Shown here piece after piece: positions 2,622 through 46,572 of a stretch of 64,000 bases of DNA (its first letter is position 1; each line of letters opens with the position of its first letter). The notes beneath the pieces are model-generated. The model saw only the letters and a list, made by a program, of their open reading frames with translations, searched no databases and was not told where the DNA came from. The position numbers and the translations under genes were made by a program. The stretch lies in the IMG/VR virus record IMGVR_UViG_3300025129_000005. The stretch is one strand, 5' to 3'. Origin of the DNA: a virus. Lineage: Duplodnaviria; Caudoviricetes.

Positions 2622-2854
2622 AAGTATATGAATTGATGGATATCCTGAAAGACCATGACCCCGAAATGAGGGTTGTGGTCAGGGGATATGAAGCAGGATA
2701 TGATGATGTTGACAGAGTTGTCAAACTTAATGTCTGTCTCAATGTCCACAAGGAATGGTACCACGGTAAACATGATATACTTGATAGTGCTGATGAGGCA
2801 GAAGAATATCAACAAGAGGAAGTTTTGTATCTAAGGGGAGACGGAAATGAGTGA
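2618..2854 (+). CDS. Hypothetical protein
   Basis: ATGA overlap with upstream gene. Confidence 0.6.
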   Translation: MKVYELMDILKDHDPEMRVVVRGYEAGYDDVDRVVKLNVCLNVHKEWYHGKHDILDSADEAEEYQQEEVLYLRGDGNE

Positions 2855-3065
2855 TGATTCTTGGTATAAACCATCAGAAAAACTGCCAGAATATACAACA
2901 CATGCTACGGGTAATCGTTTTTGTGTAATTATTGCAAGCTTTGGGGGGATGGTGACAGAGACACTGTATGAAGAGGGTGAATGGAAACCCATGCATATTG
3001 ACGGTGTAAATGTATCACCTGATTGGTGGAGATATATGCCGGTTCCCCCTGTAACAGACAAATAA
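2847..3065 (+). CDS. Hypothetical protein (DUF551-like)
   Basis: W..PSEKLPE...WWRYMPVPP pattern. Confidence 0.5.
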   Translation: MSDDSWYKPSEKLPEYTTHATGNRFCVIIASFGGMVTETLYEEGEWKPMHIDGVNVSPDWWRYMPVPPVTDK

Positions 3066-3078
3066 AAGAGATCATAAA

Positions 3079-3414
3079 ATGTCAGAATATACACCAGACA
3101 AATGGTTAATTGTAACAATAAGCGGTTATGATCCTCATTATAGAGTTTTTGCAACGTGGTCTGGTGGATATCTTGATGGTGACTCATGGAAGATGAATTC
3201 TGGTATCACATCAGTCACAGAAGACGATTATTATTACTACTTCAAGGGATCTTCTGGTTCTGTATATAATTGCCGTAAGACCTCTTATGGATCAAATGGT
3301 TACGGTTTGAGTGTTATTAATAACTTCATTAAACAAAGCGAAAAAGACGGGGTTTTTATCATTGAAATCATGGGTGAAGATTTTGATGTCATGAACACTG
3401 ATTGGATTATTTGA
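3079..3414 (+). CDS. Conserved phage hypothetical protein
   Basis: YTPDKW...WSGGYLDGDSWKMNSGI...GSSGSVY motifs. Confidence 0.7.
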   Translation: MSEYTPDKWLIVTISGYDPHYRVFATWSGGYLDGDSWKMNSGITSVTEDDYYYYFKGSSGSVYNCRKTSYGSNGYGLSVINNFIKQSEKDGVFIIEIMGEDFDVMNTDWII

Positions 3415-3716
3415 TGATAAAAGTAGGTCAAAACGTTAGAATAATCAATTATGGTGGAATGTATAGTTCCTATAACGATATGGCGAAACACATGGGTTTG
3501 CTGTATTTCAAGACACATGAACTGGTAACATTTGATTTTTCTCAAATCATGACCGTTATATATGTATCTCCGCATTTGAAATTCCCCGACAGTGCCACTT
3601 TAGTAGGAATAAGAGGAAAAGATATTAATGGAAATTTTCGTGACTATATCTATCACATAGATAGTCTTGAGGCTGTATCAGAAGATATTTTATCAGAAGA
3701 TTTATTTCGGATTTAG
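3402..3716 (+). CDS. Hypothetical protein
   Basis: In-operon ORF; likely start a few codons in (MIKVGQ). Confidence 0.55.
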   Translation: MDYLMIKVGQNVRIINYGGMYSSYNDMAKHMGLLYFKTHELVTFDFSQIMTVIYVSPHLKFPDSATLVGIRGKDINGNFRDYIYHIDSLEAVSEDILSEDLFRI

Positions 3717-12387: not shown

Positions 12388-13914
12388 TTAGTTTTCTTCT
12401 CTGTCCTCTTTCTCTACCTTCTTCTTTTTTTTATTCTTGATATAATCAGGTCTATTGGTAACCATATAAACTCTAGCAGGATTAACCACTGATCCAGATC
12501 TTATCATAAAATCTTTATTGATTAGAACAGGTGTTGTTTTATGACTACGATCATTTAAATTAAACGGTACTTTTGAATAATTAACACCTTCAAATGTGAC
12601 ATTTAATTCTACAACTACCCTCTTCTCATCCAATTTTTCTTCCGAATCAGAATTATTTTTCATTCTAATTTCGTTTAATTTCGTCCCTGACATCTTTTTA
12701 CCCATAGTAGACCATGTTACCTTAGACCCTTCGACATTAACGTCTTGTGCGTCAAGTGAGGAGCTACCAGCGGCATTTCCGGTGTCAAACCGAGCATGTA
12801 ATTGACCGATACCCTCGATCTCTATGGATTCAATCACACCAATCTGCTGTGGTGGTCTATTCCAATTTATGGTATTCTTTGCATATTGCATCACCATATC
12901 AACAATATCTAATTTGGTCAGTTCCTCTATACCATCTGTACCGGGGGAAGAGTTAACCTCAAGAATATATGGGTTTCCTTCAACATCAAACATGATATCC
13001 ACGCCGCACCATTTACACTGAACTGATTTTGCAGCTTTAACTGCCAATTCTCGTATTTCCTTGGTTGGTCTATATTTACCAGTCTTTCCGCCTAGATGAA
13101 CGTTTGAACGGAAATCGTTATCAACGACCTTTCGCTTCATTGCCGCAATAACCTTGTCACCCAAAACATGAAGTCGAACATCATGGTCAGACTTAACGTA
13201 TCTCTGCAACATCATCTCAACTTCATCACCAACAGCCCATATAGCTTGAAGTGTGGACTTTAATGCTTTGTACTCATTGACAATGAATACACCTTTCCCC
13301 TGAGTACCACTTAATGTCTTAACAACAACAGGAAATCCACCGCCAACTTTTTTGTGTGCCAACTCAAGCATTTCCTCTGTAGGAACTAGCGCAGTATCAG
13401 GAACAGGAAGACCAGCTTCAACTAGCTTTAATGTTGTTAAATACTTGTCTTCACATGTTTGAATAGAAGACTTTTCGTTCAAGAAACAAAAACGATATCT
13501 CTCAAGACGTGACATAAGGTTTTGTGAATATCGATGAAACATAACACCGCGTCTGGCAATGACAAAAGTTTTATCACGATCAATCTCATGACCTTCTTTA
13601 TCACCAACGTTATAGATCTTGATAGTTCCTTCGTCGCCTTTCTCAAGATAAGCAGTGTCAGCGAATGCTGTGTAAAAAGGAACATCATTTTTGCTACACC
13701 ATTTCTCTATTTTGATGATAGTTGGGTTCTTTTTTGACATCTTTCTATTCTTGGAATCGGTAGATGATGTTAGTATAAGGATATTAAACCCTTCAACCTC
13801 ATCAATATCAACCATTTCCTCTTCGGGATCAGAGTCAATACCATCTGCTTCATGGATAACAGAATTTAACTTTAACTTTTCAAATTCTTCTTTAAGTGAC
13901 ATTTGATACCCCAT
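12388..13914 (-). CDS. RimK-family ATP-grasp ligase fused to RimK-associated aspartic-type protease domain
   Basis: DKYLT, VVKTLSGTQGKGV, DFRSNVHLGG, CGVDI, ILEVNSSPG; C-terminal ARFDTGN...LNDRSH...VLI. Confidence 0.85.
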   Translation of the reverse strand: MGYQMSLKEEFEKLKLNSVIHEADGIDSDPEEEMVDIDEVEGFNILILTSSTDSKNRKMSKKNPTIIKIEKWCSKNDVPFYTAFADTAYLEKGDEGTIKIYNVGDKEGHEIDRDKTFVIARRGVMFHRYSQNLMSRLERYRFCFLNEKSSIQTCEDKYLTTLKLVEAGLPVPDTALVPTEEMLELAHKKVGGGFPVVVKTLSGTQGKGVFIVNEYKALKSTLQAIWAVGDEVEMMLQRYVKSDHDVRLHVLGDKVIAAMKRKVVDNDFRSNVHLGGKTGKYRPTKEIRELAVKAAKSVQCKWCGVDIMFDVEGNPYILEVNSSPGTDGIEELTKLDIVDMVMQYAKNTINWNRPPQQIGVIESIEIEGIGQLHARFDTGNAAGSSSLDAQDVNVEGSKVTWSTMGKKMSGTKLNEIRMKNNSDSEEKLDEKRVVVELNVTFEGVNYSKVPFNLNDRSHKTTPVLINKDFMIRSGSVVNPARVYMVTNRPDYIKNKKKKKVEKEDREEN

Positions 13915-14194: not shown

Positions 14195-15622
14195 TTACTG
14201 TAGCTTTTTATCCTTCATCTCTTTAGCCACTTCATACATAATAGGTTTGAGTAATTCATCTGGATATCCCTTACCCCAAAAATTCAACCCCTGTACATTG
14301 GTGATATCTTTATGACCGCCTGATTGTGTTGTAATAATATCCCATAGATTTACGGTAATTTTATCTAACATGCTCTTCTGCTTGAATGACAACGAATCAA
14401 ACTTTGACTTTGATATGCTTTTGATGAATGAAGTCCAACCACCCTCACTGTCAAGTTCGACACCGTTGACTTGTTTTTGATCAAACATGGCAACAAAGTC
14501 TTCCCATTTGAAACCCATTGCATCCAAATCACCCTTAATATCACTCTCCATGATACGCTTGATATCACCAAGGCTAACCTTTTTTTTCTGCATCTTTGAT
14601 TTAAATTTGGACATAATATTATTCATAACCAAATCACCTAAATGATAAGGGTTTTTCCCTGATTTAAATGGATTTTTGGAAACCTGAACGAGACCCATAG
14701 CCCACCCAATACAAAGATAATCAGCATCAGGATAAAGTTTGAATGGTGTATATCTATCATATACATTACTACCACCCATAAAGCCACCACCGTATTGAAC
14801 AATTGTGTTTCCCCATAAAGTTGATTGCCCCATTTTCAGCTTAGAGGGGTTTGTCTCTGATTTAACCATGCCACCCTTCTGCTGTGATACATAATTTTCG
14901 GTACCCTTTTTAATGACATTTGATGGTCTGAATCCATCTTTTTTTGCTAAATCAACGATAACATTGTACATACTAATAAGAGAAGGTTTTGATTTCATAA
15001 CAACGTCTTGTAGAAAGTTCTTTTTTCCTTTATTGGCCAGAAGCAATTTATTAACAACCATACCCATAGCAAAGTGATTTTTTTCAACATCTATTGTATC
15101 ATCATATCCAAACGCTCCATTCATAACTTGATCTGGATTAATACCGTGTTTCGCATAATCAGCACTATCAACCATTTTGATGACTTCAAGGTCTTTAGTT
15201 GGAAATATTTCACTAGGAGATATTTTTGCTGAAATTGCTGCTACGTTAGCAGGATCATGAGCAAAATCAGTTGAAGTGGTTGTATTAACACCCGTCTGAC
15301 CATCATGGTGATCTGTATGAATATCAAGAAAAGGTTTGCCATGGGCAAAATCAACCATCCATGTTAACGTTCCCTTTTGTGGCTTTGCGGCTTTAAACTC
15401 GTTCCCTCCATAATTAATGGGTATGACTTTTGTTGTTTTAATACCATATCGCTCAAGATAGGATTTCATACCAAGGGCTGAGGTTACACCATCTAAGTCC
15501 ATATGAAAATAACCAGTTGCAGTCTTATATTTCTTGGCCAAATCTTTGATATTACGAAGACCTGACTCGTTTACCTTACTATGTACCGCTTCTGCTTGCT
15601 CTAAATGTTCAAATATATTCAT
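14195..15622 (-). CDS. DHH-superfamily phosphoesterase-like protein
   Basis: HMDLDG, VDFAH, TDHHD and C-terminal SGGH motifs; leader ...VNE|S. Confidence 0.65.
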   Translation of the reverse strand: MNIFEHLEQAEAVHSKVNESGLRNIKDLAKKYKTATGYFHMDLDGVTSALGMKSYLERYGIKTTKVIPINYGGNEFKAAKPQKGTLTWMVDFAHGKPFLDIHTDHHDGQTGVNTTTSTDFAHDPANVAAISAKISPSEIFPTKDLEVIKMVDSADYAKHGINPDQVMNGAFGYDDTIDVEKNHFAMGMVVNKLLLANKGKKNFLQDVVMKSKPSLISMYNVIVDLAKKDGFRPSNVIKKGTENYVSQQKGGMVKSETNPSKLKMGQSTLWGNTIVQYGGGFMGGSNVYDRYTPFKLYPDADYLCIGWAMGLVQVSKNPFKSGKNPYHLGDLVMNNIMSKFKSKMQKKKVSLGDIKRIMESDIKGDLDAMGFKWEDFVAMFDQKQVNGVELDSEGGWTSFIKSISKSKFDSLSFKQKSMLDKITVNLWDIITTQSGGHKDITNVQGLNFWGKGYPDELLKPIMYEVAKEMKDKKLQ

Positions 15623-15701
15623 ACTAACTCCTAGTTATAATTTATATTAGTATTTATCTTATATTACTACATATATACTTTGACCGATATTAAAACTCTA
15701 T

Positions 15702-16361
15702 TCACAATAACTTGGTCAATTCATCCTCAAAAAACGGGTCTATCAGGTAGTATTCTTTGCATCTCCACATAGATTCAAAAGTCCTCTGACTTAACCACGT
15801 TTTCATACCACTATCTCTGAAACCTTCAACCCTTTTCTTCCATTTTTCAAGTTTCTTACGATCATAGTCATCATCCCCATTAGTACCAGCAATATCATTA
15901 ATAAGTTCACCATTTTTATCAAAGTTTATGACACGATGTGGTGTGTTTATAAATAAATCATCAACGTCAGGGTTATATATGTATTTGTATTGACCTATTG
16001 GCATGAATATCAATCCGTAACCATAAGTATAAGTCTCGCTATAATTATGTGTTGCAAATACACCAGTATTACGAGGCATCCAACCAAATTTCTTTTTAAA
16101 TATTTTATTCAAATAATCCTGTATGTCCTGTCTCATGTTCATAGGTTTTCTATTCATACGAGGTTTTTTCTTGAATATGGCAAATTTATCTTTATCATTC
16201 TTACCCAGAGACCTAACGCCACGATAGAAATACCAATCAGTACCAAATTCACGAAGATATGGTGCGCATTTTCTTTTAAGTTCATCAGCAATCTCTTCGA
16301 CAGAATTAAATTCAACCCTTTCAGCCGAGGATTCTTCGGTTATATATCGAACTAATCTCAT
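15702..16361 (-). CDS. ADP-ribosyltransferase-like paralog A
   Basis: Leader MRLVRYITE; FYRG, GVFAT, YG and late FESMW..YY. Confidence 0.5.
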   Translation of the reverse strand: MRLVRYITEESSAERVEFNSVEEIADELKRKCAPYLREFGTDWYFYRGVRSLGKNDKDKFAIFKKKPRMNRKPMNMRQDIQDYLNKIFKKKFGWMPRNTGVFATHNYSETYTYGYGLIFMPIGQYKYIYNPDVDDLFINTPHRVINFDKNGELINDIAGTNGDDDYDRKKLEKWKKRVEGFRDSGMKTWLSQRTFESMWRCKEYYLIDPFFEDELTKLL

Positions 16362-17008
16362 TAATACCTCTCAATGCCCAGATATTTTGATAATTCATCT
16401 ATGATAACCATGTCAACATAATAGTAACCATTAGGGCAATTAAATATAACCTCTCGTGCTTGTTTATCACGCCAAGCTTTTTTTAGATTACCGCCGAAAT
16501 AACCATCAACCAAAAAATCAACATCCTTCTGTTCCAAAAAATACAAAGGATCTTTATAACGTAATCTAAGTTCAGATTCTATTTGGCTTTGTGCTATAAA
16601 AAAATCATAATGATCTTCTGAATACACAAACTTATACCCATTCACAGGAAACATTAAATATAAGTTTTTTCCGTACCCCCTAGACATACCGGGTCTTGTT
16701 GCGGTAAACACTCCCTCACTTCTGACTTTCCAACCAAATTTTTTCATGAATGATTTGTCTGCCATATCGTGGACACGTTTTCTTGTATCAACAGGTCTTC
16801 GATTCAGCCTTGGTTTTTGTTTAGAGATAAAAACGCCCCTTTCCAATTGTCGGTTAGTCCCTCTATAAAGAAACCCCCCAGTCTCTCTTATAAACAGAGA
16901 ACAATCCTTTTGTAATATTGTTAAAACATTATCAAGATCTGGATCCTCTCCACGTATTCTGGTACCTTGCTCCGTGATAAGGTCTGTTATGTACTGTTCA
17001 AATTTCAC
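16361..17008 (-). CDS. ADP-ribosyltransferase-like paralog B
   Basis: Leader MKFEQYITDLITE; LYRG, RSEGVFTAT, YG and REVIF. Confidence 0.5.
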   Translation of the reverse strand: MKFEQYITDLITEQGTRIRGEDPDLDNVLTILQKDCSLFIRETGGFLYRGTNRQLERGVFISKQKPRLNRRPVDTRKRVHDMADKSFMKKFGWKVRSEGVFTATRPGMSRGYGKNLYLMFPVNGYKFVYSEDHYDFFIAQSQIESELRLRYKDPLYFLEQKDVDFLVDGYFGGNLKKAWRDKQAREVIFNCPNGYYYVDMVIIDELSKYLGIERY

Positions 17009-17038
17009 TAAAAATACCCTCTACAATTCAACTTAATT

Positions 17039-17782
17039 TTATTGGGATGCGGCGATTTTCTCTCGTATTTTTCTGACCGCAGGTAATTCCGATTTTGCTG
17101 TATGTTTAATTCCAGTATAAAATATGGCTAACATAAGGTTGTATATTGTTCTACCCAACCATGGAACAGAAATAATAGATCCCGTGGCAAACAAACCAAT
17201 CAACATCAGCCCGTCAGGAGATCCAAAAATGTCCTCAAGACTATAAGCACCCTTCAATGCTAATGCTATATTTGTGAAATCGAAATCATAATCCAAATTA
17301 CCTATAAATGTCATCTGAGTCCACATAAAAAATAACAGCCCTGCAACAACCGATCCAGTAACTTTCTTAAGTAGAGGATACTTTTCGGCAAACTCATCAA
17401 ACTTAATCGTCCCCTGTCGTATCTTCTGATATATTTTGGTTTTGTATAATTCACTGAATATCTCAAACAATCCTTGTCTAATAAACATCGTCAGAGTATT
17501 GACAGACTTAAAAATAACTTTTAATGAAAACCCAAATGATTTAAGCAACTTGAACATATTCTTTTCACTAAAAGCATTGATTATCTCTACGGCACTTAGA
17601 CCAAAATCAAATATCATCTGATCGAGAATTTCGCCCGCCTCTTTAAACTTCCTGACAATAAACCCGACCGCCTTGTCCTTTAAATCAACAAGACCCTCGT
17701 CTACACCAAAGTAATAGTTTATTCCTTGGATGTATTGTTCATATGTAACATCAGATTCATTTATATACTGCTCAAATCTCAT
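17039..17782 (-). CDS. Hydrophobic protein with capsid-targeting-like leader
   Basis: MRFEQYINE|S; C-terminal hydrophobic helices. Confidence 0.6.
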   Translation of the reverse strand: MRFEQYINESDVTYEQYIQGINYYFGVDEGLVDLKDKAVGFIVRKFKEAGEILDQMIFDFGLSAVEIINAFSEKNMFKLLKSFGFSLKVIFKSVNTLTMFIRQGLFEIFSELYKTKIYQKIRQGTIKFDEFAEKYPLLKKVTGSVVAGLLFFMWTQMTFIGNLDYDFDFTNIALALKGAYSLEDIFGSPDGLMLIGLFATGSIISVPWLGRTIYNLMLAIFYTGIKHTAKSELPAVRKIREKIAASQ

Positions 17783-18518
17783 ATAAATATTCTCCCTGTG
17801 AAGAACTAACCATCACCGTCTTTGTTGACCACCACACTTCCTTGTTAAACGGTAATACATCACCAACCTTTCGCAAAACAAACCCATTCTTTGCCGGATC
17901 AAGGTAATCAGTACACGCCTGTAACATGTTACCATTGTAAAACTCCTTAAAAAAACGGGACACTGGCTTATTTTTATGCGGCGAGCTTAATACCTCATCC
18001 ATTTTTTCAAATTGTTTAAGTAAAGTTCCCCATTTATCAGAAGGTGATTCCTTTATATACGTTTCGAATGCAAACTTAAGATCTTCATTGAAAGTATCAA
18101 GCGAAGGACTAAAGGAATCCCATAAATCATCCTCTGGACATACACCAATATCAGTACCATCAATGGGTAGCATTATATAAGTTTTTCCTATGTGACGATC
18201 GACCCTGCTGGGGCTTGAAGCACCAATTACTGACTTACTTCTCTTTGGATATTTGTTCCATAACGACATATTATCCATCATAACAGTATAATAATTATAG
18301 GTATATCGAGAATCTCTTTTGAATCTTGATGGTTCAACAACACCATAGTCATTTGTGTAATTTTCGGAACTTCTATATAAACCACGACCCTCTGTATACA
18401 TTCTCAGTGAATTACTGCATCTCTTTTTAATGAATTCAAACGCATCTTCACGACTGATCGGCTTGGTTCGACCACTAGTTCGTTTAGAATCCTCTATTAA
18501 AAAATTTTCTAATCTCAT
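17772..18518 (-). CDS. ADP-ribosyltransferase-like paralog C
   Basis: Leader MRLENFLIE; LYRS, YPKRSKSVIGASS and KEVWW. Confidence 0.5.
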   Translation of the reverse strand: MRLENFLIEDSKRTSGRTKPISREDAFEFIKKRCSNSLRMYTEGRGLYRSSENYTNDYGVVEPSRFKRDSRYTYNYYTVMMDNMSLWNKYPKRSKSVIGASSPSRVDRHIGKTYIMLPIDGTDIGVCPEDDLWDSFSPSLDTFNEDLKFAFETYIKESPSDKWGTLLKQFEKMDEVLSSPHKNKPVSRFFKEFYNGNMLQACTDYLDPAKNGFVLRKVGDVLPFNKEVWWSTKTVMVSSSQGEYLYEI

Positions 18519-18533
18519 AGTAGCTCCTAAATA

Positions 18534-19370
18534 TCAATCAATCTGCGGTAAATTGTGACGATGCAAGAAAAAACAAGCCTCTCCTTGTTCATACAACAAT
18601 CTCCCTATATCATCAAAGGTAATATAACACTCACCATTCATCCCCCATGACTTACCCCATGAATTATGTATAGTGAATCTTTGTTTGGATACATTAACAG
18701 AATTAACTAAAACACAATGACCACCAGCTATTTCACCTTTTGCATAGATATATCCATTAGAATCAGGATAGAACATTCCGGTATACCAATTAATCCCAAT
18801 TACTGCTGGACCGTTATATCCAACACCCAATATCAAGTCCTCCAATCCGAATGCCCAACGATACTCCTCTATCCACCCGAGTTTCTTCGCAACCTTGGCT
18901 CCAGCCAAAACACTCGTCCCTTCATAAAACGGGAATCCTCCGGGATATGACCCACCATTCCATTCATCGATTTTCTGTGCTTCCCAATATATTTTTTCTT
19001 TGGCATATCGTTCCGTGATACCTCTGACTTCTGCTGGTCTGGCGATCAATTCATGGGCAATACCAAAACCAACACAGGCTCCATCAGGTCCCTGATCCAG
19101 TTGAGCATCGCATCTCCATGTATAGGAACGTCTCTTCTTGGTACTGACTGTCGACCTTATACCATATCCACGACTACGTTCATCGAACTGGACTATACGA
19201 TCAAGTCTAGCGTCACTCGTAATAACATGACCCTTCAATAATATACTTCCGTCAACTCGCATCTCATTTACAATTGAATTGAGTTTTTCGTCTTCAAGCT
19301 TCTTGATGTGTTTCATTTCTTTAACTTTTTCCAGATAATCATTATGTCTTGATTGTACAGTGCTACCCAT
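18534..19370 (-). CDS. Papain-like (C1) cysteine peptidase
   Basis: DQGPDGACVGFG (Gln/Cys), GGHCV (His), HNSWGKSWG (Asn). Confidence 0.85.
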   Translation of the reverse strand: MGSTVQSRHNDYLEKVKEMKHIKKLEDEKLNSIVNEMRVDGSILLKGHVITSDARLDRIVQFDERSRGYGIRSTVSTKKRRSYTWRCDAQLDQGPDGACVGFGIAHELIARPAEVRGITERYAKEKIYWEAQKIDEWNGGSYPGGFPFYEGTSVLAGAKVAKKLGWIEEYRWAFGLEDLILGVGYNGPAVIGINWYTGMFYPDSNGYIYAKGEIAGGHCVLVNSVNVSKQRFTIHNSWGKSWGMNGECYITFDDIGRLLYEQGEACFFLHRHNLPQID

Positions 19371-19388
19371 ATCAAATCTCCTTTGTTT

Positions 19389-20222
19389 TTATTGAATATA
19401 AGCTTCCATTTTATCTTTAAAACTTGGATCATTCCATAGACTCAATTCAACTAAAATACAGTAACCATCAGTCCATACCTCTTTTCTGCGGGGAATGGCA
19501 TTACCGACCTTTTTTAATTGAAAATTTTTATCAGGTTCCATGACTGTTTTATAAAATCCAAAAAGGTCTTTGCTATCGAACCACATATCAATCAAATTAT
19601 CCGTCGGACTGTAACTTGATAAAATTTTTGACAAATCTTTTCTTATGTCACGGTCAGTATTCATTCGCCCTATTATATCATTTATCGTTGAAAGCTTTGA
19701 CCAAGATCCGTCATAGGGTCTGGCTATAGTAGGATAATTATAACTCTTTTCTTCTATATAACCCATATATGACCAAATAGTATCATCAACAAACGCATTT
19801 ATTTGACCTAAATCTTCGCCGGTACTTTTATAACTTACAGAAAATATATCATCGTAATTAACAACACCCACTGTAGACCCATCTTCTGGAAGAACAACAT
19901 AAAGTCTGTTCCCATAAGACATAGCTTTACCCATATCAGTAGAACATATAACACTTTCACTTCTTTTGGGATATCCCGAGAAAGTACCTCCATTGTCCAT
20001 GAAAAGGGTATAATAATTAAAGGTGTTTCTGGATTCTCTTTTTCTGTTCTGCTTAGGATCAATCTCCATAACAGTACCTTTACCAAGTACACCACGAAAG
20101 ATAAGATTATTTTTAAGTGATCTATTATAAGCCTTCATGCATCTTTTGGATATAATCTCAAGACCCTTATCAAGGTTAATACTTTTGCTCCTGCCTTCAT
20201 TTAAGTAATGTTCTAATTTCAT
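19389..20222 (-). CDS. ADP-ribosyltransferase-like paralog D
   Basis: Leader MKLEHYLNE; IFRG, YPKRSESVICST, SYG and KEVWT. Confidence 0.5.
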   Translation of the reverse strand: MKLEHYLNEGRSKSINLDKGLEIISKRCMKAYNRSLKNNLIFRGVLGKGTVMEIDPKQNRKRESRNTFNYYTLFMDNGGTFSGYPKRSESVICSTDMGKAMSYGNRLYVVLPEDGSTVGVVNYDDIFSVSYKSTGEDLGQINAFVDDTIWSYMGYIEEKSYNYPTIARPYDGSWSKLSTINDIIGRMNTDRDIRKDLSKILSSYSPTDNLIDMWFDSKDLFGFYKTVMEPDKNFQLKKVGNAIPRRKEVWTDGYCILVELSLWNDPSFKDKMEAYIQ

Positions 20223-20592
20223 AATGATTTCTTAAGCCTTTGTAAGAATTTCGTATCAAATGCATTATTTTCGAATGATACGATATAATATTCATAACAT
20301 TTGAACATGGCCTCATGGGATGACTCTGCTTTCCACCCATGATATTTAAAAAACAACTCATCCATGAGATCATGTAAATGTTTCGGAGTGTCTTTAGGAA
20401 CCATTTTTCGTCTCGACCTGACTTTTAGGATATAATCACTCATCTCTTTTTGTGTGCCACGATATACGGGGTTATATGGTTGTACTCCAAACTCTTTAAT
20501 GAATGGTTGACAATCCCTTTTGAGGACATCAATGATATCATCCATTTCCAGTTCGCGCTTTGTTGGTTCTTCTTCATTTTATACAGTTTCAT
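20219..20592 (-). pseudogene. Decayed ART-like paralog E
   Basis: ATG at 20592 overlaps the upstream stop (TAATG) but a 1-nt deficit shifts the leader (MKLY/NEEE); the body keeps KRDC, YRG, GWKA and E..FKC..YY but lacks about 100 central residues. Confidence 0.65.
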
Positions 20593-21278
20593 TACGACCT
20601 CGATATATAAAGAGTGCCATCTTTTATTTTTCCGGTTAAAAAATATTCCTTAATATATTTATGATAATCCACGTCGATCAAATAATATCCGCTACACTTC
20701 CATACGACTTCTATGACATAGTGGTGACCGTTGACGTTCTGATATTTTTTCAGCCCTTTATCTGTATATTTTGGTAAAAATTCCTCAATATACGATTTGC
20801 CTTTATTATACGCAAATTTATCAGACGTGTCGCCTTCTTTGTATTTTTTTATCCATTCATATGTGATAGAAAAATCAGCTATATCAATCACATCTTTGTT
20901 GTAGAGATAACTGTATGCTCCGACTGGAAAGAATAGAAACGATTTATTCCCATATTTAAGCGAATTACGATAGTCTGTTGATGTGTATACCCCCTCTGAA
21001 CGCCATTTCCACCCCCATTTTTTCTTACTCCATTCATCGAGAAAATAATGCATCAACAACTCGGAATCCTTCGGTCTTCTGTCCTGTCTTGCTGTACGAT
21101 ACATAACTGCATGTGTATTAATATTTGTCCCCCGGAAAAAACGGCTACCGGATACATTAAATTCCTTTAACCACGGAGCGCAGTCTTTCTTGATCATTTC
21201 ACAAACATCAATTAGGTCTGATACATTTTTAATATCTCTACTCTGATACCCCTCGGTCAAATAATGTTCAAGTCTCAT
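20592..21278 (-). CDS. ADP-ribosyltransferase-like paralog F
   Basis: Start reassigned to MRLEHYLTE (21278); FFRG, RSEGVYTST, YG and IEVVWKC..YY. Confidence 0.5.
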   Translation of the reverse strand: MRLEHYLTEGYQSRDIKNVSDLIDVCEMIKKDCAPWLKEFNVSGSRFFRGTNINTHAVMYRTARQDRRPKDSELLMHYFLDEWSKKKWGWKWRSEGVYTSTDYRNSLKYGNKSFLFFPVGAYSYLYNKDVIDIADFSITYEWIKKYKEGDTSDKFAYNKGKSYIEEFLPKYTDKGLKKYQNVNGHHYVIEVVWKCSGYYLIDVDYHKYIKEYFLTGKIKDGTLYISRS

Positions 21279-21921
21279 GATAAAATTTCTCCTCCAACCG
21301 TTTAAAGCCAAAATCAATCAATTTCTTAAAAAAATACGCGAACATAGGTAATAATACTATATTTATAAAAGGGTTTTTGGCATCAATTTTGAACAATGTC
21401 ATAACATCTTCGATTTCTTTGGCAATATGCCCCTTCTCTGACAGATATGCTTGTTTTTCCTTTTCTAATTCATCAATGCGATTTTGTAACTTATCGACAA
21501 TAGGTTCTACAGGAACCGGTGTGACTGATGAAGGTTCAGGACATCCATCCTCACGAACAACCATATTAAGTGGAGTATTTGGGCATTTATCATAGGTATC
21601 CGGGACATTATCACTATCACTATCACTATCTATGGGATATGGTGATGCGGCAATTGGTGGCGAAGCCGGTAATCGTGACGGTTCAACTATCATAGCTAAT
21701 GATTCATCACGATACGCACGTTGTACTTGTCTCAACTCCATTTGCTTGGTCTCGATATCTTCAACTGCGGTATCAATTAAATTGTTATTCAGCTTGATCT
21801 GTGCATAAGTAGCTTGCTCTACTTGGACATAATTGATATAGTTGGTGTATCCCCATATACCTAAAATAATGAATCCAACTATTAAGTAAATAAAAAATCT
21901 CGTCCACCTGAATTTTTCCAT
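21268..21921 (-). CDS. Membrane protein with thrombospondin type-3-like Ca-binding repeat
   Basis: Start MEKFRW after AGGAG; N- and C-terminal TM helices, coiled coils, DSDSDNVPDTYDKCPNTP...DGCP. Confidence 0.6.
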   Translation of the reverse strand: MEKFRWTRFFIYLIVGFIILGIWGYTNYINYVQVEQATYAQIKLNNNLIDTAVEDIETKQMELRQVQRAYRDESLAMIVEPSRLPASPPIAASPYPIDSDSDSDNVPDTYDKCPNTPLNMVVREDGCPEPSSVTPVPVEPIVDKLQNRIDELEKEKQAYLSEKGHIAKEIEDVMTLFKIDAKNPFINIVLLPMFAYFFKKLIDFGFKRLEEKFYHET

Positions 21922-22104
21922 AAAAAATCTCCTGAGAGTTATGTAAATATTTATGAAAACTTGATATACGATAGTGACTGTGATATGATAATTAAATGAG
22001 GGAATATTCGGAACAATATAAACCCAATGAATTGAATGTTGACTGTCACCCGGATGATTAAACCTTATTAGAATGATCATATTTTTAGAAGATTTATTTG
22101 AGAT

Positions 22105-22488
22105 ATGAAGCGGAAGAAATTGACATACGAACCAAGGGAACCACAATCACGTGCTTCCCTTTTAGCATTGAGATTTCAGTATCTTAGTGACCCAATGGTT
22201 GACAGTCGTGAGCCATGTGAAGTATGGCTTGACTTTCGTATGTCACTTCTGTCTCAATGGGAAAAAGAACGCGGTACACTCACCTGTCATTACTGTGGAC
22301 GTGACAATCTACAGAAGGTTACGGAGGGTGTTGAACCTCGCAACCAAGCAACTCTTGACCATGTTATGCCACGTGCAAGGGGGGGCGCGGAATTTGATGA
22401 ATCGAATCTTGTAGTTGCGTGTAGACCATGCAACGAACGCAAAGCAGATAACCCGCCCACGAAAATAATTCTTGCTGAAAATCCTTGA
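22105..22488 (+). CDS. HNH endonuclease
   Basis: CHYC...TLDHVMPRARGG...NLVVACRPCNERK. Confidence 0.9.
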   Translation: MKRKKLTYEPREPQSRASLLALRFQYLSDPMVDSREPCEVWLDFRMSLLSQWEKERGTLTCHYCGRDNLQKVTEGVEPRNQATLDHVMPRARGGAEFDESNLVVACRPCNERKADNPPTKIILAENP

Positions 22489-22553
22489 CTATAAACGGGA
22501 TCGATGTTAATCTGTAGTTGTGATTGACGTTAACCCTTCTTTGTGAGGACACT

Positions 22554-22748
22554 ATGAACCAAATCGAAATGAACATCATCACAAAAATCAAAAACACCAA
22601 TAATAACAAACTTTTGGTATGTCGTTTTGAAAAAGAGGAAATCCCCGTTCTTGACCAGATGCGTAACAAGGGTATTATTGCCCCTGCACGATTCTGTGGT
22701 GAACCTGCCGCAGCACTCTCTCAACGTTACCTGAAAGGACTTGTGTAA
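22554..22748 (+). CDS. Hypothetical protein
   Basis: GAGG RBS; start reassigned to ATG 22554. Confidence 0.55.
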   Translation: MNQIEMNIITKIKNTNNNKLLVCRFEKEEIPVLDQMRNKGIIAPARFCGEPAAALSQRYLKGLV

Positions 22749-23033
22749 TGAAAATCAATAAACGTTTCCAAGACTATGTTGACCACCATAACCTTTGGTA
22801 TGAGGTTATTGGTAAACCTGAAAAATAGTATCAAATTTCCCCTGTCACAAGAAGACGTTAACGTGCTGGGTAATAAACTTTCCAATGAACTTTCCCCTGA
22901 GAATCTGCACTGTGATGGTGAAATTTCACGCAATCAAGCACAACGTAAATACAACAAACTGATGAACGTGGTCAAAGACCTGAATGTATACGCAAAGAAG
23001 AATGGTTTGTGTGAACCCAACATTTATTGTTAA
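22748..23033 (+). pseudogene. Frameshifted hypothetical gene (LSPENLHCDGE motif)
   Basis: TAATG-coupled ATG at 22748 stops early; removing one A from the A5 run (22821-22825) joins it to ORF 22776-23033. Confidence 0.5.
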
Positions 23034-23044
23034 GGAGATAGATT

Positions 23045-23194
23045 ATGGATACTTTTACCGCAACAATGATTGCAGAAGGCGTTGAGCCAGTTGATACCGA
23101 AGAAGGATATTTTAGTGCATGGCAACTCCAAGGTTGGTTTGGTCATACAGCATCCCAATTAATCGAACTTGGTCATTGTACCTACAACAAATAA
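23045..23194 (+). CDS. Small hypothetical protein (49 aa, not in ORF track)
   Basis: AAGGAG RBS; MDTFTATMIAEG...AWQLQGWFGHTA. Confidence 0.55.
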   Translation: MDTFTATMIAEGVEPVDTEEGYFSAWQLQGWFGHTASQLIELGHCTYNK

Positions 23195-23197
23195 CTC

Positions 23198-23226
23198 TTG
23201 ACTGTAAACGGGGTTAGTGGTACTAT
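23198..23226 (+). promoter_or_regulatory. sigma70-like early promoter
   Basis: TTGACT-N17-TACTAT. Confidence 0.65.
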
Positions 23227-23270
23227 CTTTATGTAGTCACCGTTAACCCCCTTCTGCATTGGAGTTTCCC

Positions 23271-23726
23271 TTGAAAAAATTCAGAGCTAAAACTGATATT
23301 TTCCTTTCCATGTGTGCTGATTCTAAATCTCTCGGTGAAGATAATGACTGTACTGTGAAAGCTATCGCAATCACCACTGGTATTCCTTATAAAAAGGTAC
23401 ATGAAACGTTGAAAAAAGGGGGTCGTGGTGATGGTAAATGCGCTACCCTGAGTCAAATGCAAAATGCTTGTCTTGACCTTGGTTTCAAGATGAAAAATAT
23501 CCCTCTCGAGACTATCAAGGAAAAGTATCCTGCTGCGGGTCGCAAACTCAAGAGTATCACCACGAATCACCCCGAACTATTCAATAAGGCATGGAAAGAT
23601 GGTAAGAATTATATCCTTCATTGTCGGGGTCATGTTGCCGCAGTCATCGATGGTGTGAACCACGATTGGACTTTTGGGCGGAAATATCGCGTTAATAATA
23701 TTTACGAGGTTGTCCCTGCAAAATAA
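23271..23726 (+). CDS. Hypothetical protein, possible papain-like (C39-related) fold
   Basis: GGAG then TTG start; NDCTVKAIA ... GHVAAVIDG suggests a Cys-His-Asp set. Confidence 0.45.
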   Translation: MKKFRAKTDIFLSMCADSKSLGEDNDCTVKAIAITTGIPYKKVHETLKKGGRGDGKCATLSQMQNACLDLGFKMKNIPLETIKEKYPAAGRKLKSITTNHPELFNKAWKDGKNYILHCRGHVAAVIDGVNHDWTFGRKYRVNNIYEVVPAK

Positions 23727-23729
23727 CAG

Positions 23730-23757
23730 TTGACACTATCCGTGGATATGATAGTAT
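23730..23757 (+). promoter_or_regulatory. sigma70-like early promoter
   Basis: TTGACA-N16-TAGTAT. Confidence 0.55.
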
Positions 23758-23806
23758 ATAGATGTGGTCGCGGAGTGATCACCACTTTTTGAAAGGATAT
23801 AAAATC

Positions 23807-24145
23807 ATGGCTTATATGAGTCAGGAACTAAAAGCTAAAATGGCACCCGGTATCAAAGCGGTACTTAAAAAAATATGGTGTTAAAGGTAGCATTTCTGTT
23901 AGAAACCATTCGACTTTGGTCGTTACCCTGTATAAAGGTCGCCTTGATCTCAAAGAGTCCCCGAATATTTTTTGGATTGATCGTCACTATGAAGGCAAGA
24001 TTAAAGAATTTTTGAAGAATTGCGTCAAGCCATGAGCATTGGATACTATGATAACAGTGACCCAATGATTGACTATCATGATGTCGCATACTATCGTAAA
24101 ATCCAAGTCGGGACATACATTAAACCCTATGTATTAGAAAAATAG
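23807..24145 (+). pseudogene. Hypothetical gene with two compensating frameshifts
   Basis: MAYMSQELKAKMAPGIKAVLKK, then extra A (A7 at 23867-23873), YGVKGSISVRNHSTLVV..., second shift near 24015 into ELRQAM...YYDNSDPMIDYHDVAYY. Confidence 0.6.
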
Positions 24146-24174
24146 AGATGATCGTTTGGAGAGAAAAAAAAATA

Positions 24175-25278
24175 ATGAAACCTTATAAGATATTCGCAGA
24201 ATTAATAGAACAAGATGCATTGGATCAATTCCATCAAGCAATGGAACAAAAGTTTGTCGTTAAAGGTGCATTGATGCCTGATGCCCATAAAGGATACTCT
24301 TTGCCTATAGGAGCCGTTGTCGCCACAAAAAACGTCATTGTTCCTTCTTGGGTTGGATATGATATCGGTTGCGGTATGTGCGCAATCCCTACTTCATTCA
24401 CCCTTTCCGATATATATCAAAACGCTCAAGCGATATGGGCTAGAATTCAAGAAGCTATACCTGTTGGATTTAATCATCATGATACACACCAGACATGGGA
24501 TCGATATAGCACTATCGAAAAAACTGAAACCGCTATCAATATTTTTAATTACAAAAACGGTATTGGTTGGAGACAACTCGGAACCCTTGGCGGCGGCAAC
24601 CATTTCATTGAAATCGGTTCAGACGAAAATGGAGTCATATGGATCATTGTTCACTCAGGATCTCGTGGTATCGGTCATGCCATAGCTACCCATTACATGA
24701 AAATTGCAGGTGGAGGTAAAGCCCGTGAAGGATCCTATGGATTGGATGTTAATTCTCCAAACGGAAAAGACTACATCATTGATTTAAATTTTGCTCTTGA
24801 ATTCGCATTAGAAAACCGATTTAAAATTATAAATCAAGTCAGCAATGTTATAGAGGAATACTGTAAAGGGAGTTTGGACTGGTCTTGTTTTATAAACAGA
24901 AACCATAACCACGCAGAAGAAAAAGACGGTCTGTGGATTCATAGAAAAGGCGCAACCCATGCAGAAGCAGGCATGGAAGGAGTCATTCCCGGTAACATGA
25001 GAGACGGATCATTCATTGTTGTCGGAAAAGGTAACCCTGAATCACTATACTCCAGTTCCCATGGTGCCGGTCGAGTTTTAGGTCGAAACGTCGCAAAGAA
25101 GATATTAGATATAAATGACTTCACAGAAACTATGAAAGGTATTGTAGCAAACGTAGATGATAGTACATTAGATGAATCCCCTTTTGCTTATAAAAATATT
25201 TTTGATGTCATGAAACAACAAGAGGAATTAGTCTCAGTTAAATATTACGTCAAACCAATAATTAATGTTAAAGGATGA
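24175..25278 (+). CDS. rtcB: RtcB RNA-splicing/repair ligase
   Basis: MPDAHKG, VGYDIGCG, LGTLGGGNHF, HSGSRG, HNH, HRKGAT, HGAGR, LDESP..YK; GGAG RBS before 24175. Confidence 0.95.
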   Translation: MKPYKIFAELIEQDALDQFHQAMEQKFVVKGALMPDAHKGYSLPIGAVVATKNVIVPSWVGYDIGCGMCAIPTSFTLSDIYQNAQAIWARIQEAIPVGFNHHDTHQTWDRYSTIEKTETAINIFNYKNGIGWRQLGTLGGGNHFIEIGSDENGVIWIIVHSGSRGIGHAIATHYMKIAGGGKAREGSYGLDVNSPNGKDYIIDLNFALEFALENRFKIINQVSNVIEEYCKGSLDWSCFINRNHNHAEEKDGLWIHRKGATHAEAGMEGVIPGNMRDGSFIVVGKGNPESLYSSSHGAGRVLGRNVAKKILDINDFTETMKGIVANVDDSTLDESPFAYKNIFDVMKQQEELVSVKYYVKPIINVKG

Positions 25279-36936: not shown

Positions 36937-37386
36937 TTATTTGATGTAATGGGATCGTATTCTTTCTCGTATCAACATCAAAATTTTACCAAGAAAATTA
37001 TTTTTGGTATAACCGATACAATTAACACAGTAACAATGACCCCAATAGCAGTCATGCCACCAGTTACCTTCGATCAGTCTATCATCACCTGTATTCAATA
37101 ATTTTTCGCGTAATATCTTATCACTGAATTTCTCGACAATAATATCATACATAACAGAAACTTTTATTTTGTCCCAATCGTCACGCTTTTTTATTTTCTG
37201 ACCAAGCTTCTTTGATTCTTTGGGACTCAATTTAACAAATTCTTGGTGTAATTTTATATCCAAAGACTTATGTGCTTGATATGCGGTCTCAGATGAAGAA
37301 TATGTTAACCCTTTATAAGTCACCGGATTTTCATAAAAATTACTTAACCAATTGTATTCATTATGAAATTGTTTAACCGAATTCAC
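36937..37386 (-). CDS. NADAR family protein (YbiA-like)
   Basis: WLSNFY, SSETAYQAHK, RDDWD...M...KFS...LLNTG..LIEGN...YWG...NFLGKILM; GTG start with AGGGG RBS. Confidence 0.9.
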   Translation of the reverse strand: MNSVKQFHNEYNWLSNFYENPVTYKGLTYSSSETAYQAHKSLDIKLHQEFVKLSPKESKKLGQKIKKRDDWDKIKVSVMYDIIVEKFSDKILREKLLNTGDDRLIEGNWWHDCYWGHCYCVNCIGYTKNNFLGKILMLIRERIRSHYIK

Positions 37387-37390
37387 AAAA

Positions 37391-37591
37391 TTAACACCCC
37401 CTGAAAGGGTCTGTCCCGGTAAACCACTCCTTTTGATCAATCATTGACTCAACGACAGCCATAGAAACATTGTTATAATTATATTCTCTACCATCACGTG
37501 AATTAAAGGTTACTCCGAATAGACCATTGTTAAGATCTTCAACAATACACCCTATGAACTTTTCTGAATAAAAGAAATCTCCAACTTTCAT
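37391..37591 (-). CDS. Hypothetical protein
   Basis: ATGA overlap, in-operon. Confidence 0.55.
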   Translation of the reverse strand: MKVGDFFYSEKFIGCIVEDLNNGLFGVTFNSRDGREYNYNNVSMAVVESMIDQKEWFTGTDPFRGC

Positions 37592-40563: not shown

Positions 40564-41085
40564 TCAAAAGTTTTTGGCTAACTCCTCGTTATCAGTATCA
40601 CCCATGGCATGAAGAGTGGCGATAATTTTAGTCATGTTTTTATATACATAGTCATGGTTTGATTGGAAATTATCATAAGTTGATATGGATATTCCTAGTA
40701 TATTTTGCATAATGTGTCGTGGTATAGAAGTTATACCCAGAAACGTTTTATCTATATTAACAATAAAAGAAATTATATCTTCTTTTTGAACTTTACTGAA
40801 CTGTAATTTAATATCTTTTTCCAGCTGTAATAAAGGTTCTTTATCTAAGATGTCAGCGTGTACGGAATAATCCAGTATTAATTTCATTAAATGGAGAACA
40901 CCTTTACCAGCTTTACCTAATTGCTCTTGAAATGTTTTTGATTTACGGACTTTTATGCCCATCTTTTGACCGAGTTTTTGAAGTGAAGCTAAAAACTCAT
41001 CAGAAACTTCATTAATTTCATTAGTTAGATATATAAATCCTAATATATTAAATTCACGTTCGTTTAAATATTGCTGAAATTTCAT
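40564..41085 (-). CDS. Leader-bearing hypothetical protein, paralog of 45444-46052
   Basis: MKFQQYLNE; KEDIISFIVNIDK..LGITSIPRHI vs KEQVLDFLLKLDM..LHLVSGPLHL; late promoter 41118-41125. Confidence 0.65.
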   Translation of the reverse strand: MKFQQYLNEREFNILGFIYLTNEINEVSDEFLASLQKLGQKMGIKVRKSKTFQEQLGKAGKGVLHLMKLILDYSVHADILDKEPLLQLEKDIKLQFSKVQKEDIISFIVNIDKTFLGITSIPRHIMQNILGISISTYDNFQSNHDYVYKNMTKIIATLHAMGDTDNEELAKNF

Positions 41086-41386: not shown

Positions 41387-42307
41387 TTATACCCTCTTAC
41401 GTCTACGAATATTTACGGTATCTGACGTTTTTGGAATATTATTTTTTATAAAGTCTCTCAGGTCATCCCAATTCAACATTTCATTTTCGAAATCTTTACT
41501 TGATTTCATGGGTTTACCTGACTCCTTAACGTTTATATATTTAAAGCTTTTGATTATAAAGGTCTTATCTTTGCTGTATTTTCCTATTTGTTCTATTCTT
41601 TCTCCGGGTTGTTGTATGTACTTATTTTTACCCTTCATCGTCTCTTTGGTATCACCTGTTGTCATATACACGGTGTTTTTGTTACCACCAAGAATAATAT
41701 TTATATCACCATCTATATGAGTTCCTATAATGTTATATTTATGTCTTAATATATCCGTAACTGTATTTGCGGCTCCAGAATGAGTTTTTAGCATAATATC
41801 ATAAGGAACCCTTCTTTCCCGTGTTTTATTTTGTTCCACTGCTACATAGAAGTCTGTCAGCACCCATGTTAAATGAACATCTTTTGGTTTATATCCCACT
41901 TCTAATAATTGAGGTATAATTTCAGTTATATCATTTATATCTTTCAACGTTACATCAAACATTATATTAGGTAGATTATTTTTTGATGCGCCTGCTAGAA
42001 GTAATTCAAGAGTTTCGTCTTTCCACCCTTTATCTTTTACAAATTGATGTAATCTTTTAATGTCATCTGGATTACTCCAAACTGTATTAGCAATTTCAGG
42101 ATTTTCTTTCTTTAGCTTTGATATTTTAACTGCCATTTTTTTTAATTCATCCACATCTCTGACCTTAAACTTGTTTTTTTCCATGAAATTGGACGAGGAG
42201 AATCCCTTTCCGCTCCCGGCACCTCCAGCGAGAAAAACAATTTGACCGTATGACTTTCCCCCGCCAACGATAATTTGTTTTTCTGTAATATAACTTTCAA
42301 AACGCAT
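41387..42307 (-). CDS. P-loop kinase/ATPase (zeta-toxin/AAA_33-like) with capsid-targeting-like leader
   Basis: MRFESYITE; Walker A GGAGSGKG; MFDVT; RERRVP lid; late promoter 42344-42351. Confidence 0.7.
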   Translation of the reverse strand: MRFESYITEKQIIVGGGKSYGQIVFLAGGAGSGKGFSSSNFMEKNKFKVRDVDELKKMAVKISKLKKENPEIANTVWSNPDDIKRLHQFVKDKGWKDETLELLLAGASKNNLPNIMFDVTLKDINDITEIIPQLLEVGYKPKDVHLTWVLTDFYVAVEQNKTRERRVPYDIMLKTHSGAANTVTDILRHKYNIIGTHIDGDINIILGGNKNTVYMTTGDTKETMKGKNKYIQQPGERIEQIGKYSKDKTFIIKSFKYINVKESGKPMKSSKDFENEMLNWDDLRDFIKNNIPKTSDTVNIRRRKRV

Positions 42308-46119: not shown

Positions 46120-46572
46120 TCAGATTCCTGATTTATCTTCGTACATCTTCCATTTACTTTGTTCTTTTTTGGGAATGCGCTCATACGTTTCTTCTGGGGT
46201 CAGCCATTTTATTGAGTTTTTACTGGTTAATTCGATAGTGTCCTTCCAAGGATTTACAATATAAATATCTTTTCCATTTTTATCAGCATATTCACATTCA
46301 CGCCATGTACCATTACCCATTTTACCGTCTTTAAATGTCATAGCACATACATGTTCAACTGTATCAATAACTTTAAAGAATATATCAAACCCCATATCAT
46401 CAACTCGACCTTGTATCCAGTTAACATTGGGATTAACAATAATAAATTCTGGAAATTTTTCTGTTATGATGTTGATGGATTTTTTTTCTTCTGGTTTGTC
46501 ATAAAATGCACGTGGATGTGCAAAATATATTTTACGGCGGTTAGCCTCGGTTAAATAGTTGCTAAACTTCAT
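46120..46572 (-). CDS. Nucleoside 2-deoxyribosyltransferase-like protein with capsid-targeting-like leader
   Basis: MKFSNYLTE; IYFAHP, VNPN, GNGTWRECEYA..NGKDIY. Confidence 0.55.
   Translation of the reverse strand: MKFSNYLTEANRRKIYFAHPRAFYDKPEEKKSINIITEKFPEFIIVNPNVNWIQGRVDDMGFDIFFKVIDTVEHVCAMTFKDGKMGNGTWRECEYADKNGKDIYIVNPWKDTIELTSKNSIKWLTPEETYERIPKKEQSKWKMYEDKSGI

Follow-up and report, generated by a model that had tools for sequence, protein, structure and literature searches.

We analysed a 64,000-nucleotide stretch of DNA from an uncultured, T4-related giant phage of the Caudoviricetes (Duplodnaviria; IMG/VR record IMGVR_UViG_3300025129_000005), hereafter the window, in which six homologous genes lie on the minus strand at positions 15702-21278: three intact copies of one subfamily (A-type), one decayed A-type copy and two copies of a second subfamily (B-type). 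The initial annotation had described this locus as a tandem array of six divergent paralogs resembling ADP-ribosyltransferases (ARTs) and had read them as a diversifying battery of injected effectors. The six paralogs stand, but the region actually holds eight open reading frames (ORFs), all on the minus strand and abutting or overlapping, with two unrelated genes interleaved: a membrane-like gene that carries the same short N-terminal leader as the paralogs, and a papain-like peptidase gene. Read in the direction of transcription, the array opens with A4 (20592-21278; 228 aa from an ATG), an intact A-type gene with the leader MRLEHYLTE at 21252-21278 that falls in PHROG 11975/15932, a family of unknown function. 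It is followed by the decayed copy, A3-deleted (an ORF of 108 aa at 20219-20545, within an element spanning 20219-20592), and by the intact B-type gene B2 (19389-20222; 277 aa; leader MKLEHYLNE at 20196-20222). Next come the gene for a 278-aa papain-like (C1-like) cysteine peptidase (18534-19370), a non-paralog without the leader that matches PHROG 16701 'peptidase' at an E-value of 6e-58 and Pfam Peptidase_C1 at a sub-threshold 0.0024; B1, the other intact B-type gene (17772-18518; 248 aa; leader MRLENFLIE at 18492-18518); and the second non-paralog, a 247-aa protein with two or three hydrophobic segments (17039-17782; leader MRFEQYINE at 17756-17782). The array ends with two intact A-type genes, A2 (16361-17008; 215 aa; GTG start), whose extended leader MKFEQYITDLITE occupies 16970-17008, and A1 (15702-16361; 219 aa; leader MRLVRYITE at 16335-16361). 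The 247-aa protein matched no Pfam or PHROG family, and its candidacy as a seventh paralog was rejected, its BLASTP likeness to the paralogs being confined to the leader.

The claim of six related genes in two subfamilies was confirmed by both BLASTP and profile comparison. Among the intact A-type proteins, A1 and A2 share 30% identity (E-value 2e-22), A1 and A4 27% (3e-19) and A2 and A4 31% (1e-17), and the two B-type proteins share 27% (6e-25). The subfamilies are in turn related to each other, with 32% identity between A4 and B2 across 146 aa (1e-10) and an hhalign probability of 99.7% (E-value 8e-27) between the A and B profiles over their N-terminal 137 columns. The motif GWxxRxxGV[FY] marks the A subfamily and YPKRSxSVI the B subfamily, and a K-x-C helix and an [FY]-R-[GS] motif are common to the paralogs. 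Every motif listed in the initial annotation was found, namely these and the strand motifs, YG (missing from B1), a late Glu in the five intact copies (FES, REV, KEV, KEV and IEV) and a variable residue two positions before it (T, A, N, R or V). The sixth copy, A3-deleted, is a decaying gene: it retains the K-x-C helix, a YRG motif and the C-terminal E-x-x-F-K-C-x-E-Y-Y, but neither the invariant Asp nor the central R-S strand remains. Because alignment and BLAST resolve it into two separate matching pieces, the N-terminal one corresponding to about residues 21-107 of the A copies and the C-terminal one to about 189-207, it carries an in-frame internal deletion rather than a simple truncation. 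Directly upstream of the A3-deleted ORF, a different frame holds what is left of a leader, MKLYKMKKN..., beginning at 20592.

The leader follows the consensus M-[RK]-[LF]-x-x-[YF]-[IL]-x-E, which ends in L/I-x-E, the site of the T4 protease gp21. In its strict form, it heads 9 of the 274 ATG-initiated ORFs of at least 100 aa in the window, where composition would predict 0.003, and the tag also opens six ORFs that are not homologous to the paralogs. One of these is the gene at 17039-17782, whose product would be a capsid-targeted membrane-like protein, an unusual cargo. The others are a Zeta_toxin-like P-loop kinase (41387-42307, minus strand; Pfam E-value 3.6e-5), an HAD-like protein with a weak HAD-phosphatase match (46582-47274, minus strand) and the ORFs at 46120-46572 (minus), 40564-41085 (minus) and 48225-48734 (plus). 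Beyond the window, nearly all of the top 150 homologues in the profile search start with the leader consensus, 88 of 89 B-subfamily sequences have Glu at leader position 9, and the leader is the best-conserved segment across family representatives. In the structure model of B2, residues 1-5 are disordered and the remainder has a predicted local distance difference test (pLDDT) score above 90. The leaders of T4 itself (NC_000866) read MKTYQEFIAE in IPII and IPIII, MKTFKEF...ITE in IPI and MELITELFDE in Alt; gp21 cleaves after L/I-x-E (PMC9026906), and for loading foreign proteins into the head, the first ten IPIII residues are enough (PMC9026906; PMC3012670). We conclude that the leader is separate from the enzyme, a portable tag of the T4 type for capsid targeting and prohead-protease cleavage. 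The initial annotation had counted it in the shared architecture of the paralogs, and it is indeed common to the five intact copies, but it is not part of the enzyme, since unrelated genes carry it.

Some A-type members lack the Glu at leader position 9. In the A2 leader, position 9 is Asp and positions 11-13 are I-T-E, and the leader of the A2 orthologue on contig L002, from a related phage, reads MRLYEYITSKGE... (3432-3480). Because in T4 an Asp at the cleavage position permits targeting and blocks processing (PMC9026906), A-type members without E9, A2 among them, may enter the head uncleaved or be cleaved at a more internal site.

A prohead protease of the gp21 type is encoded in the same genome. 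Contig L005, from a Joint Genome Institute (JGI) metagenome, matches the window over 47291-64000 with 1 mismatch in 16,710 nt and is the same phage. At 20152-24841 of this contig, approximately 3.4-8.1 kb beyond the window end, lie Portal_T4, a 66-aa gene, Peptidase_S77 (the family of T4 gp21), a T4_CASP scaffold gene and Gp23. A further leader-tagged ORF (MKLLKYINE...) is situated directly after the capsid gene on L005.

This picture is further strengthened by homologues in cultured phages. In tblastn, three T4-related giant phages, Atu_ph07, RsoM2USA and SCTP-2, came out as the nearest cultured relatives, and these, together with a 484-kb uncultured phage that is also among the nearest relatives, each hold 2-5 or more family copies. 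Atu_ph07 has a tandem array of 13 domains representing both subfamilies; its proteins begin with MRWxQLxE or a closely similar leader, and its fusions join A to B (490 aa), B to a Zeta_toxin kinase (gp53, 778 aa; Zeta_toxin E-value 1.5e-14) and a weak GNAT match to A (362 aa). The computed masses of AUZ94865-AUZ94875 agree within 0.01 kDa with those of gp53-gp63 (Table S5, PMC6102473), and a cluster look-up identified AUZ94866 as gp054. All eleven proteins, gp53-gp63, were detected in purified virions by electrospray ionization tandem mass spectrometry (ESI-MS/MS), with 3-31 unique peptides and 12-46% coverage (PMC6102473 Table S5); gp204 of the same phage is a gp21 homologue. Because the leader is of T4 type and ends in L/I-x-E, the phage encodes an S77 protease and the Atu_ph07 homologues are virion proteins, it is very probable that the array proteins enter the head and are delivered together with the DNA. 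Loading by means of a T4-type capsid-targeting tag has good support, and ejection into the host is predicted. Of the initial proposal of injected effectors, head packaging is thus upheld by the leader, the protease and the virion proteins of Atu_ph07, and the effector chemistry is a prediction.

Upstream of the array, a T4-type late-promoter-like octamer, TATAAATA, is located at 21360-21367 on the minus strand, 82 nt from the A4 start codon, and is the only copy upstream of the array on that strand. The window contains 20 copies against 11.8 +/- 3.0 expected, and others lie 33-55 nt upstream of several leader-tagged genes. Within the array, neither a minus-strand terminator-like site nor an excess of sigma-70-like sites was found; subdivision of the array by sigma-70 promoters or terminators was dropped, the counts being at or below chance. 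Judged from these sequence features, the array would constitute a late operon.

Word-indexed homologue searches gave only 3-4 relatives each, so that an exhaustive profile search was needed to delimit the family, and megablast found no match for 15000-22000 among 50,697 phage records. Counting one representative per 50%-identity cluster, the profile search with the paralogs recovered 8190 representative proteins at E <=1e-3 and 4826 at <=1e-10. The family is viral-only and unannotated in Pfam, PHROGs function, NCBIfam and the source annotations. Conserved residues were counted in 141 aligned members (89 B-type and 52 A-type), and identity to B2 or A4 among the 136 aligned single-domain representatives is 20-44%, bar one orthologue at 71%. 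In B-type sequences R43, R62, N69, R87, P112 and D125 are invariant and S64, S90, C93, E248 and W250 nearly so; in A-type sequences C33, R49, R64, R67, R93, D132 and E190 are invariant. Mapped onto B2, R43 (89/89) lies in strand 42-45, E248 (87/89) starts strand 248-251, and C93-S94-T95 end strand 91-94, with C in 83, S/T in 80 and T/S in 78 of the 89 sequences. In A4 numbering, R49 and E190 are each present in 52/52, and position 100 is S or T in 41/52. The strand end [CTA]-[ST]-[TS] lies 47-52 residues after [YF]-R-G, its first position being Cys in B and T, A or C in A, and an extra invariant R-S stands four to six residues upstream of it. The residue two before the Glu is variable (N 26, D 20, K 8, Y 8, E 8 and R 5 in B-type; G 9, D 6, K 6, T 5 and N 5 in A-type), and [QE]-x-E is therefore absent family-wide. 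The paralogs of the array are mildly basic, with isoelectric points (pI) of 8.2-9.1, and in B2 a helical domain of about 100 residues (131-233) is inserted. Among homologues, fusions occur with a Zeta_toxin kinase, possibly with GNAT (a weak match) and with one another; one such protein, P0008 (2645 aa; from an ENA contig of 356,683 bp), has five family domains and a weak GNAT match. Fusions to a kinase, a GNAT-like domain and each other are the pattern of polyvalent effector proteins.

Evidence on the fold came from VIA-align searches of 48,161 PDB representatives. The hit list of the A4 AlphaFold model (pLDDT 66) is dominated by ARTs and agrees with that of the B2 model; judged from these two predicted models, the ART superfamily is the coherent signal outside the family. 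The nearest structures are the minimal ART-fold proteins Arr (a rifampin ART, PDB 9iaf) and BC2332 (PDB 2aua) and diphtheria-toxin-type structures, not cholera-toxin-type ones, and the list also holds DarT, AvrPphF, PARPs, tankyrases and TreX. We take Arr and BC2332 to belong to the His/Tyr-type ARTs; unlike them, the family here has Arg at the strand-1 position, and B2 has its helical insertion of about 100 residues. BC2332 is placed in SCOP d.166.1.6, the ADP-ribosylation superfamily (PMC3000352; PMC3024214). In the ESM Atlas shape search, a Scabin/Pertussis_S1-type Rhs toxin, one of the few named out-of-family rows, came fifth, with a template-modelling (TM) score of 0.26, after a LysR row (0.24). 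In BFVD, a PolyVal ART was the first named out-of-family row (rank 32, E-value 0.18), just behind an unnamed row also at 0.18. ARTs of the R-S-E clade have an aromatic residue and Arg in strand 1, followed by an S-T-S strand some 45-55 residues later. By the secondary structure of the B2 model, [YF]-R-G forms the first core strand, R-S-x-[GS]-h-h-[CTA]-[ST]-[TS] the next conserved strand, and E-[VI]-[WFM] opens the penultimate strand, so the family agrees with the ART triad (R/H in strand 1, S-T-S or Y, and E/D/Q) in linear order and secondary-structure placement only.

We favour, with moderate confidence, the reading of the array as a set of packaged, probably ejected, ART-fold effectors whose chemistry is predicted. 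Several results weigh against this reading. Pfam returned no ART family for the 8 window proteins or the 141 family members at E-values up to 1, NCBIfam matched no ART family, and a PDB sequence-profile search yielded nothing at E-values up to 10. Two family profiles aligned with T4 Alt (as a single sequence) at hhalign probabilities of 0.1% and 0.08%, and Foldseek found nothing significant outside the family in PDB (both models), Swiss-Prot or AFDB clusters. The [QE]-x-E of the ADP-ribosylating toxin turn-turn (ARTT) motif is missing throughout the family, the A subfamily is degenerate at the STS position, and the late-promoter evidence consists of a single octamer 82 nt upstream. Among the structural matches, rows for HisZ, mannose-6-phosphate isomerase and LysR-like proteins, at TM scores of about 0.15-0.25, were treated as noise; ESM-feature neighbours in DUF2441 and DUF3841 clusters scored 0.78-0.82, below the reliability line, and serve as a lead only.

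Of the checks that the initial annotation had proposed, structure prediction followed by Foldseek gave no significant match outside the family, and the VIA hit lists were dominated by ARTs. On the models, an ART-like fold is probable and NAD-dependent transferase activity plausible. The more specific claim that the R-S-E order is the signature of cholera-toxin-clade ARTs is not supported: none of the 141 members matched an ART family in Pfam or NCBIfam, the alignment with Alt reached 0.1%, [QE]-x-E is absent, and the nearest structures are Arr, BC2332 and diphtheria-toxin-type ones, not those of the cholera-toxin type. We know of no nameable counterpart in canonical ARTs for the extra invariant Arg and Asp.

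The evolution of the locus was followed by comparison with contig L002, which carries orthologues of A4, B2 and A2 at 71-72% identity (71% for A2), the A4 orthologue lacking its N-terminal part and with it the leader. L002 has no counterpart of A1, B1, A3-deleted, the peptidase of 18534-19370 or the membrane-like gene, and has instead two other leader-tagged genes and a homing endonuclease. In the flanks, the DHH-like genes of the two phages are 68% and the RimK genes 78% identical. The ratio of nonsynonymous to synonymous substitution rates (dN/dS; Nei-Gojobori, window versus L002) is 0.21 for A4 and 0.25 for B2, at a synonymous rate (dS) of about 0.75, against 0.04 for RimK, the flanks being saturated at synonymous sites. 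These values indicate that the paralogs are under purifying selection, somewhat relaxed or faster than in the housekeeping neighbours; positive selection on the array was dropped on the same values. Over the A4-B2 segment (L002 1494-2842), the proportion of synonymous differences (pS) is about 0.47, compared with 0.75-0.82 for A2, the DHH-like gene, RimK and a small gene, which suggests a more recent exchange of this segment between the two phages. Comparison of the two sequences points to a locus that changes mainly as tagged cargo genes are acquired, lost or decay, and T-even internal-protein loci behave similarly, through cargo gain and loss (PMC9026906). The description of the array as diversifying thus receives modest support: the orthologues are 71-72% identical, like the flanks, dN/dS is below 1 yet above that of RimK, and gain and loss dominate.

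Several neighbouring features complete the description. Within the L002 array, 2839-3432 encodes a leader-tagged 197-aa protein without a Pfam match, whose N-terminal part (...IIVDIQPEY...) is isochorismatase/nicotinamidase-like by eye, and a NUMOD3-type homing endonuclease (L002 4141-4968) lies between the array and the DHH-like gene. The window also encodes a RimK ATP-grasp domain fused to a Zn_protease/RimB-like domain (12388-13914, minus strand) and an RtcB RNA ligase (24148-25278, plus strand). At 36937-37440 on the minus strand, 16 kb from the array, lies a NADAR-domain protein (Pfam E-value 4e-24) without the leader and with weak similarity to T4 gp30.3, which would be a second NAD/ADP-ribose-related function in the same phage.

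Under the reading that we favour, the array of six anciently duplicated family members (five intact) would be transcribed late, from the upstream TATAAATA, as one tightly packed unit, and a capsid-targeting sequence (CTS) of 9-13 residues at the N-terminus would dock each product into the prohead core. The gp21-type S77 protease would then cut the tag after the Glu of L/I-x-E, by analogy with T4 IPI-III and Alt, leaving mature, mildly basic globular proteins of 24-31 kDa in the DNA-filled head, where the Atu_ph07 homologues have been found. Ejected with the DNA into the next host, these proteins would act there as ART-fold enzymes. Because Arg, the R-S strand and Glu occupy the three ART triad positions, the likeliest chemistry would be NAD+-dependent ADP-ribosylation of host or defence targets, and the type of acceptor is left open because there is no [QE]-x-E motif. 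The presence of several paralogs may represent a multi-target or host-range-dependent effector set. We advance only tentatively the bolder possibility that the family is a large, exclusively viral ART clade that forms the main ejected arsenal of its lineage. Its non-canonical catalytic constellation would perhaps consist of the strand-1 Arg, the R-S-x-[GS] strand, the invariant Asp and E-[VI]-[WF] without [QE]-x-E; its members might be loaded by cleavable tags into the heads of T4-related giant phages, from multi-paralog arrays; and its acceptors could conceivably be non-classical, extending beyond the Arg or Asn of proteins to, for example, nucleic acids, defence signalling nucleotides or defence proteins.

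An alternative that we regard as unlikely, although the strongest of its kind, accepts packaging and ejection and denies the ADP-ribosyltransferase activity, the proteins having ART-like topology only or being far-diverged derivatives. They might then act as NAD+ glycohydrolases or phosphorylases, hydrolyse nucleotides or signal molecules, or perform phosphate-ester chemistry through their invariant arginines, or, in the manner of T4 IPI*, they might inhibit defence proteins stoichiometrically. The missing sequence-level link to any ART family and the missing [QE]-x-E fit such a view, as do the three (B) to four (A) invariant Arg and the invariant Asp, which are foreign to canonical R-S-E ARTs, and the CTS-tagged cargo of T4 is known to include non-enzymatic inhibitors (PMC3012670). 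It is opposed by the coherence of the ART superfamily in the VIA searches of both models, with weak ART rows in two other libraries, and by the placement of the conserved R, E and [ST][ST] strand end at the triad positions; that polar residues stay strictly invariant at 20-44% identity, moreover, argues for catalysis over binding alone.

That the proteins are mainly structural or DNA-associated components of the head, charge-neutralising or belonging to the core like T4 IPII/IPIII or the inner-body paralog families of phiKZ and SPN3US, with their enzyme-like residues as relics, seems to us improbable. Their mildly basic character (pI 8.2-9.1), the many paralogs sharing one virion in Atu_ph07 (gp53-63) and the paralogous families of cleaved head proteins in giant phages (PMC9026906) would be expected on this account. 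But they are compact, confidently folded alpha/beta globular proteins, unlike scaffold, with R, D and E invariant (E248 in 87/89 of B) across 141 aligned members from 8190 representatives, under purifying selection (dN/dS 0.21-0.25) and with homologues fused to kinase and GNAT-like enzyme domains, and their copy content differs between close relatives, which is unexpected for essential structural parts. Finally, a leader serving, for example, translation initiation or secretion, on proteins that act in the producing cell, is very hard to credit even in an uncultured phage whose packaging is judged from homologues, given that those homologues are virion proteins, that the leader is conserved at the amino-acid level (MRWxQLxE in Atu_ph07, MRLxxYLxE here) and that it ends in a gp21 site in a phage encoding an S77 protease.

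Several known systems come close to the one proposed here. T4 Alt is a head-packaged, ejected mono-ADP-ribosyltransferase of the R-S-E clade, and the array proteins would resemble it in late synthesis, transport within the capsid and delivery along with the DNA (annotated for T4, predicted here) and in having an N-terminal propeptide that ends in L/I-x-E, which gp21 cuts in T4; in T4, moreover, partial and decayed duplicates of alt (alt.-1 and alt.-2), comparable to A3-deleted, lie on its flanks. Unlike Alt, a protein of 682 aa present in one copy, they are single domains of 215-277 aa in a six-copy array, lack [QE]-x-E and have no detectable sequence relationship to it (hhalign probability 0.1%). 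Like the CTS of T4 IPI, IPII and IPIII, the leader is short, N-terminal and portable; its second residue is basic, an aromatic residue and then I/L-x-E follow, and it is placed on unrelated, fast-turning-over cargo whose composition varies among related phages. The T4 internal proteins, however, are small basic non-enzymes, IPI* being a restriction inhibitor, whereas the proteins here are larger and have enzyme-like invariant residues, and their tag has 9 residues and differs in details.

ARTs fused to polyvalent or MuF proteins (Iyer et al. 2017, 2021, 2022) provide a further comparison, since myovirus ARTs are described as packaged and injected as first-line effectors (PMC7824862, PMC9503650), and the present family likewise forms multi-domain fusions, including the 2645-aa protein with five copies. 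Delivery here, by contrast, is predicted to occur by a cleavable CTS and not by MuF, portal or polyvalent fusion, and neither Pfam ART-PolyVal nor any other ART match was obtained; we found no mention of the family by name in the main texts of the Iyer et al. papers, including PMC7824862 and PMC9503650. Multiple head-packaged paralogs, cut by a gp21-related protease after a Glu-ending motif, are also found in phiKZ, 201phi2-1 and SPN3US (PMC9026906), but the phage here is of the T4-type gp23/portal/S77 lineage, and its proteins belong to another family with an N-terminal T4-like tag.

Head-packaged ARTs and CTS-tagged cargo are already known in principle (PMC9503650): T4 has both, and comparative genomics has predicted that they are widespread. 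What is new here is an unannotated, very large and atypical family, with thousands of divergent members and arrays of 5-13 copies. Atu_ph07 is a culturable giant phage, and its gp55-gp62 make the question directly testable. If the members are active enzymes, they would represent a major, as yet untapped class of effectors for host takeover or anti-defence in the first minute of infection, and the tag would make it possible to read directly from sequence which proteins uncultured T4-related giant phages inject.

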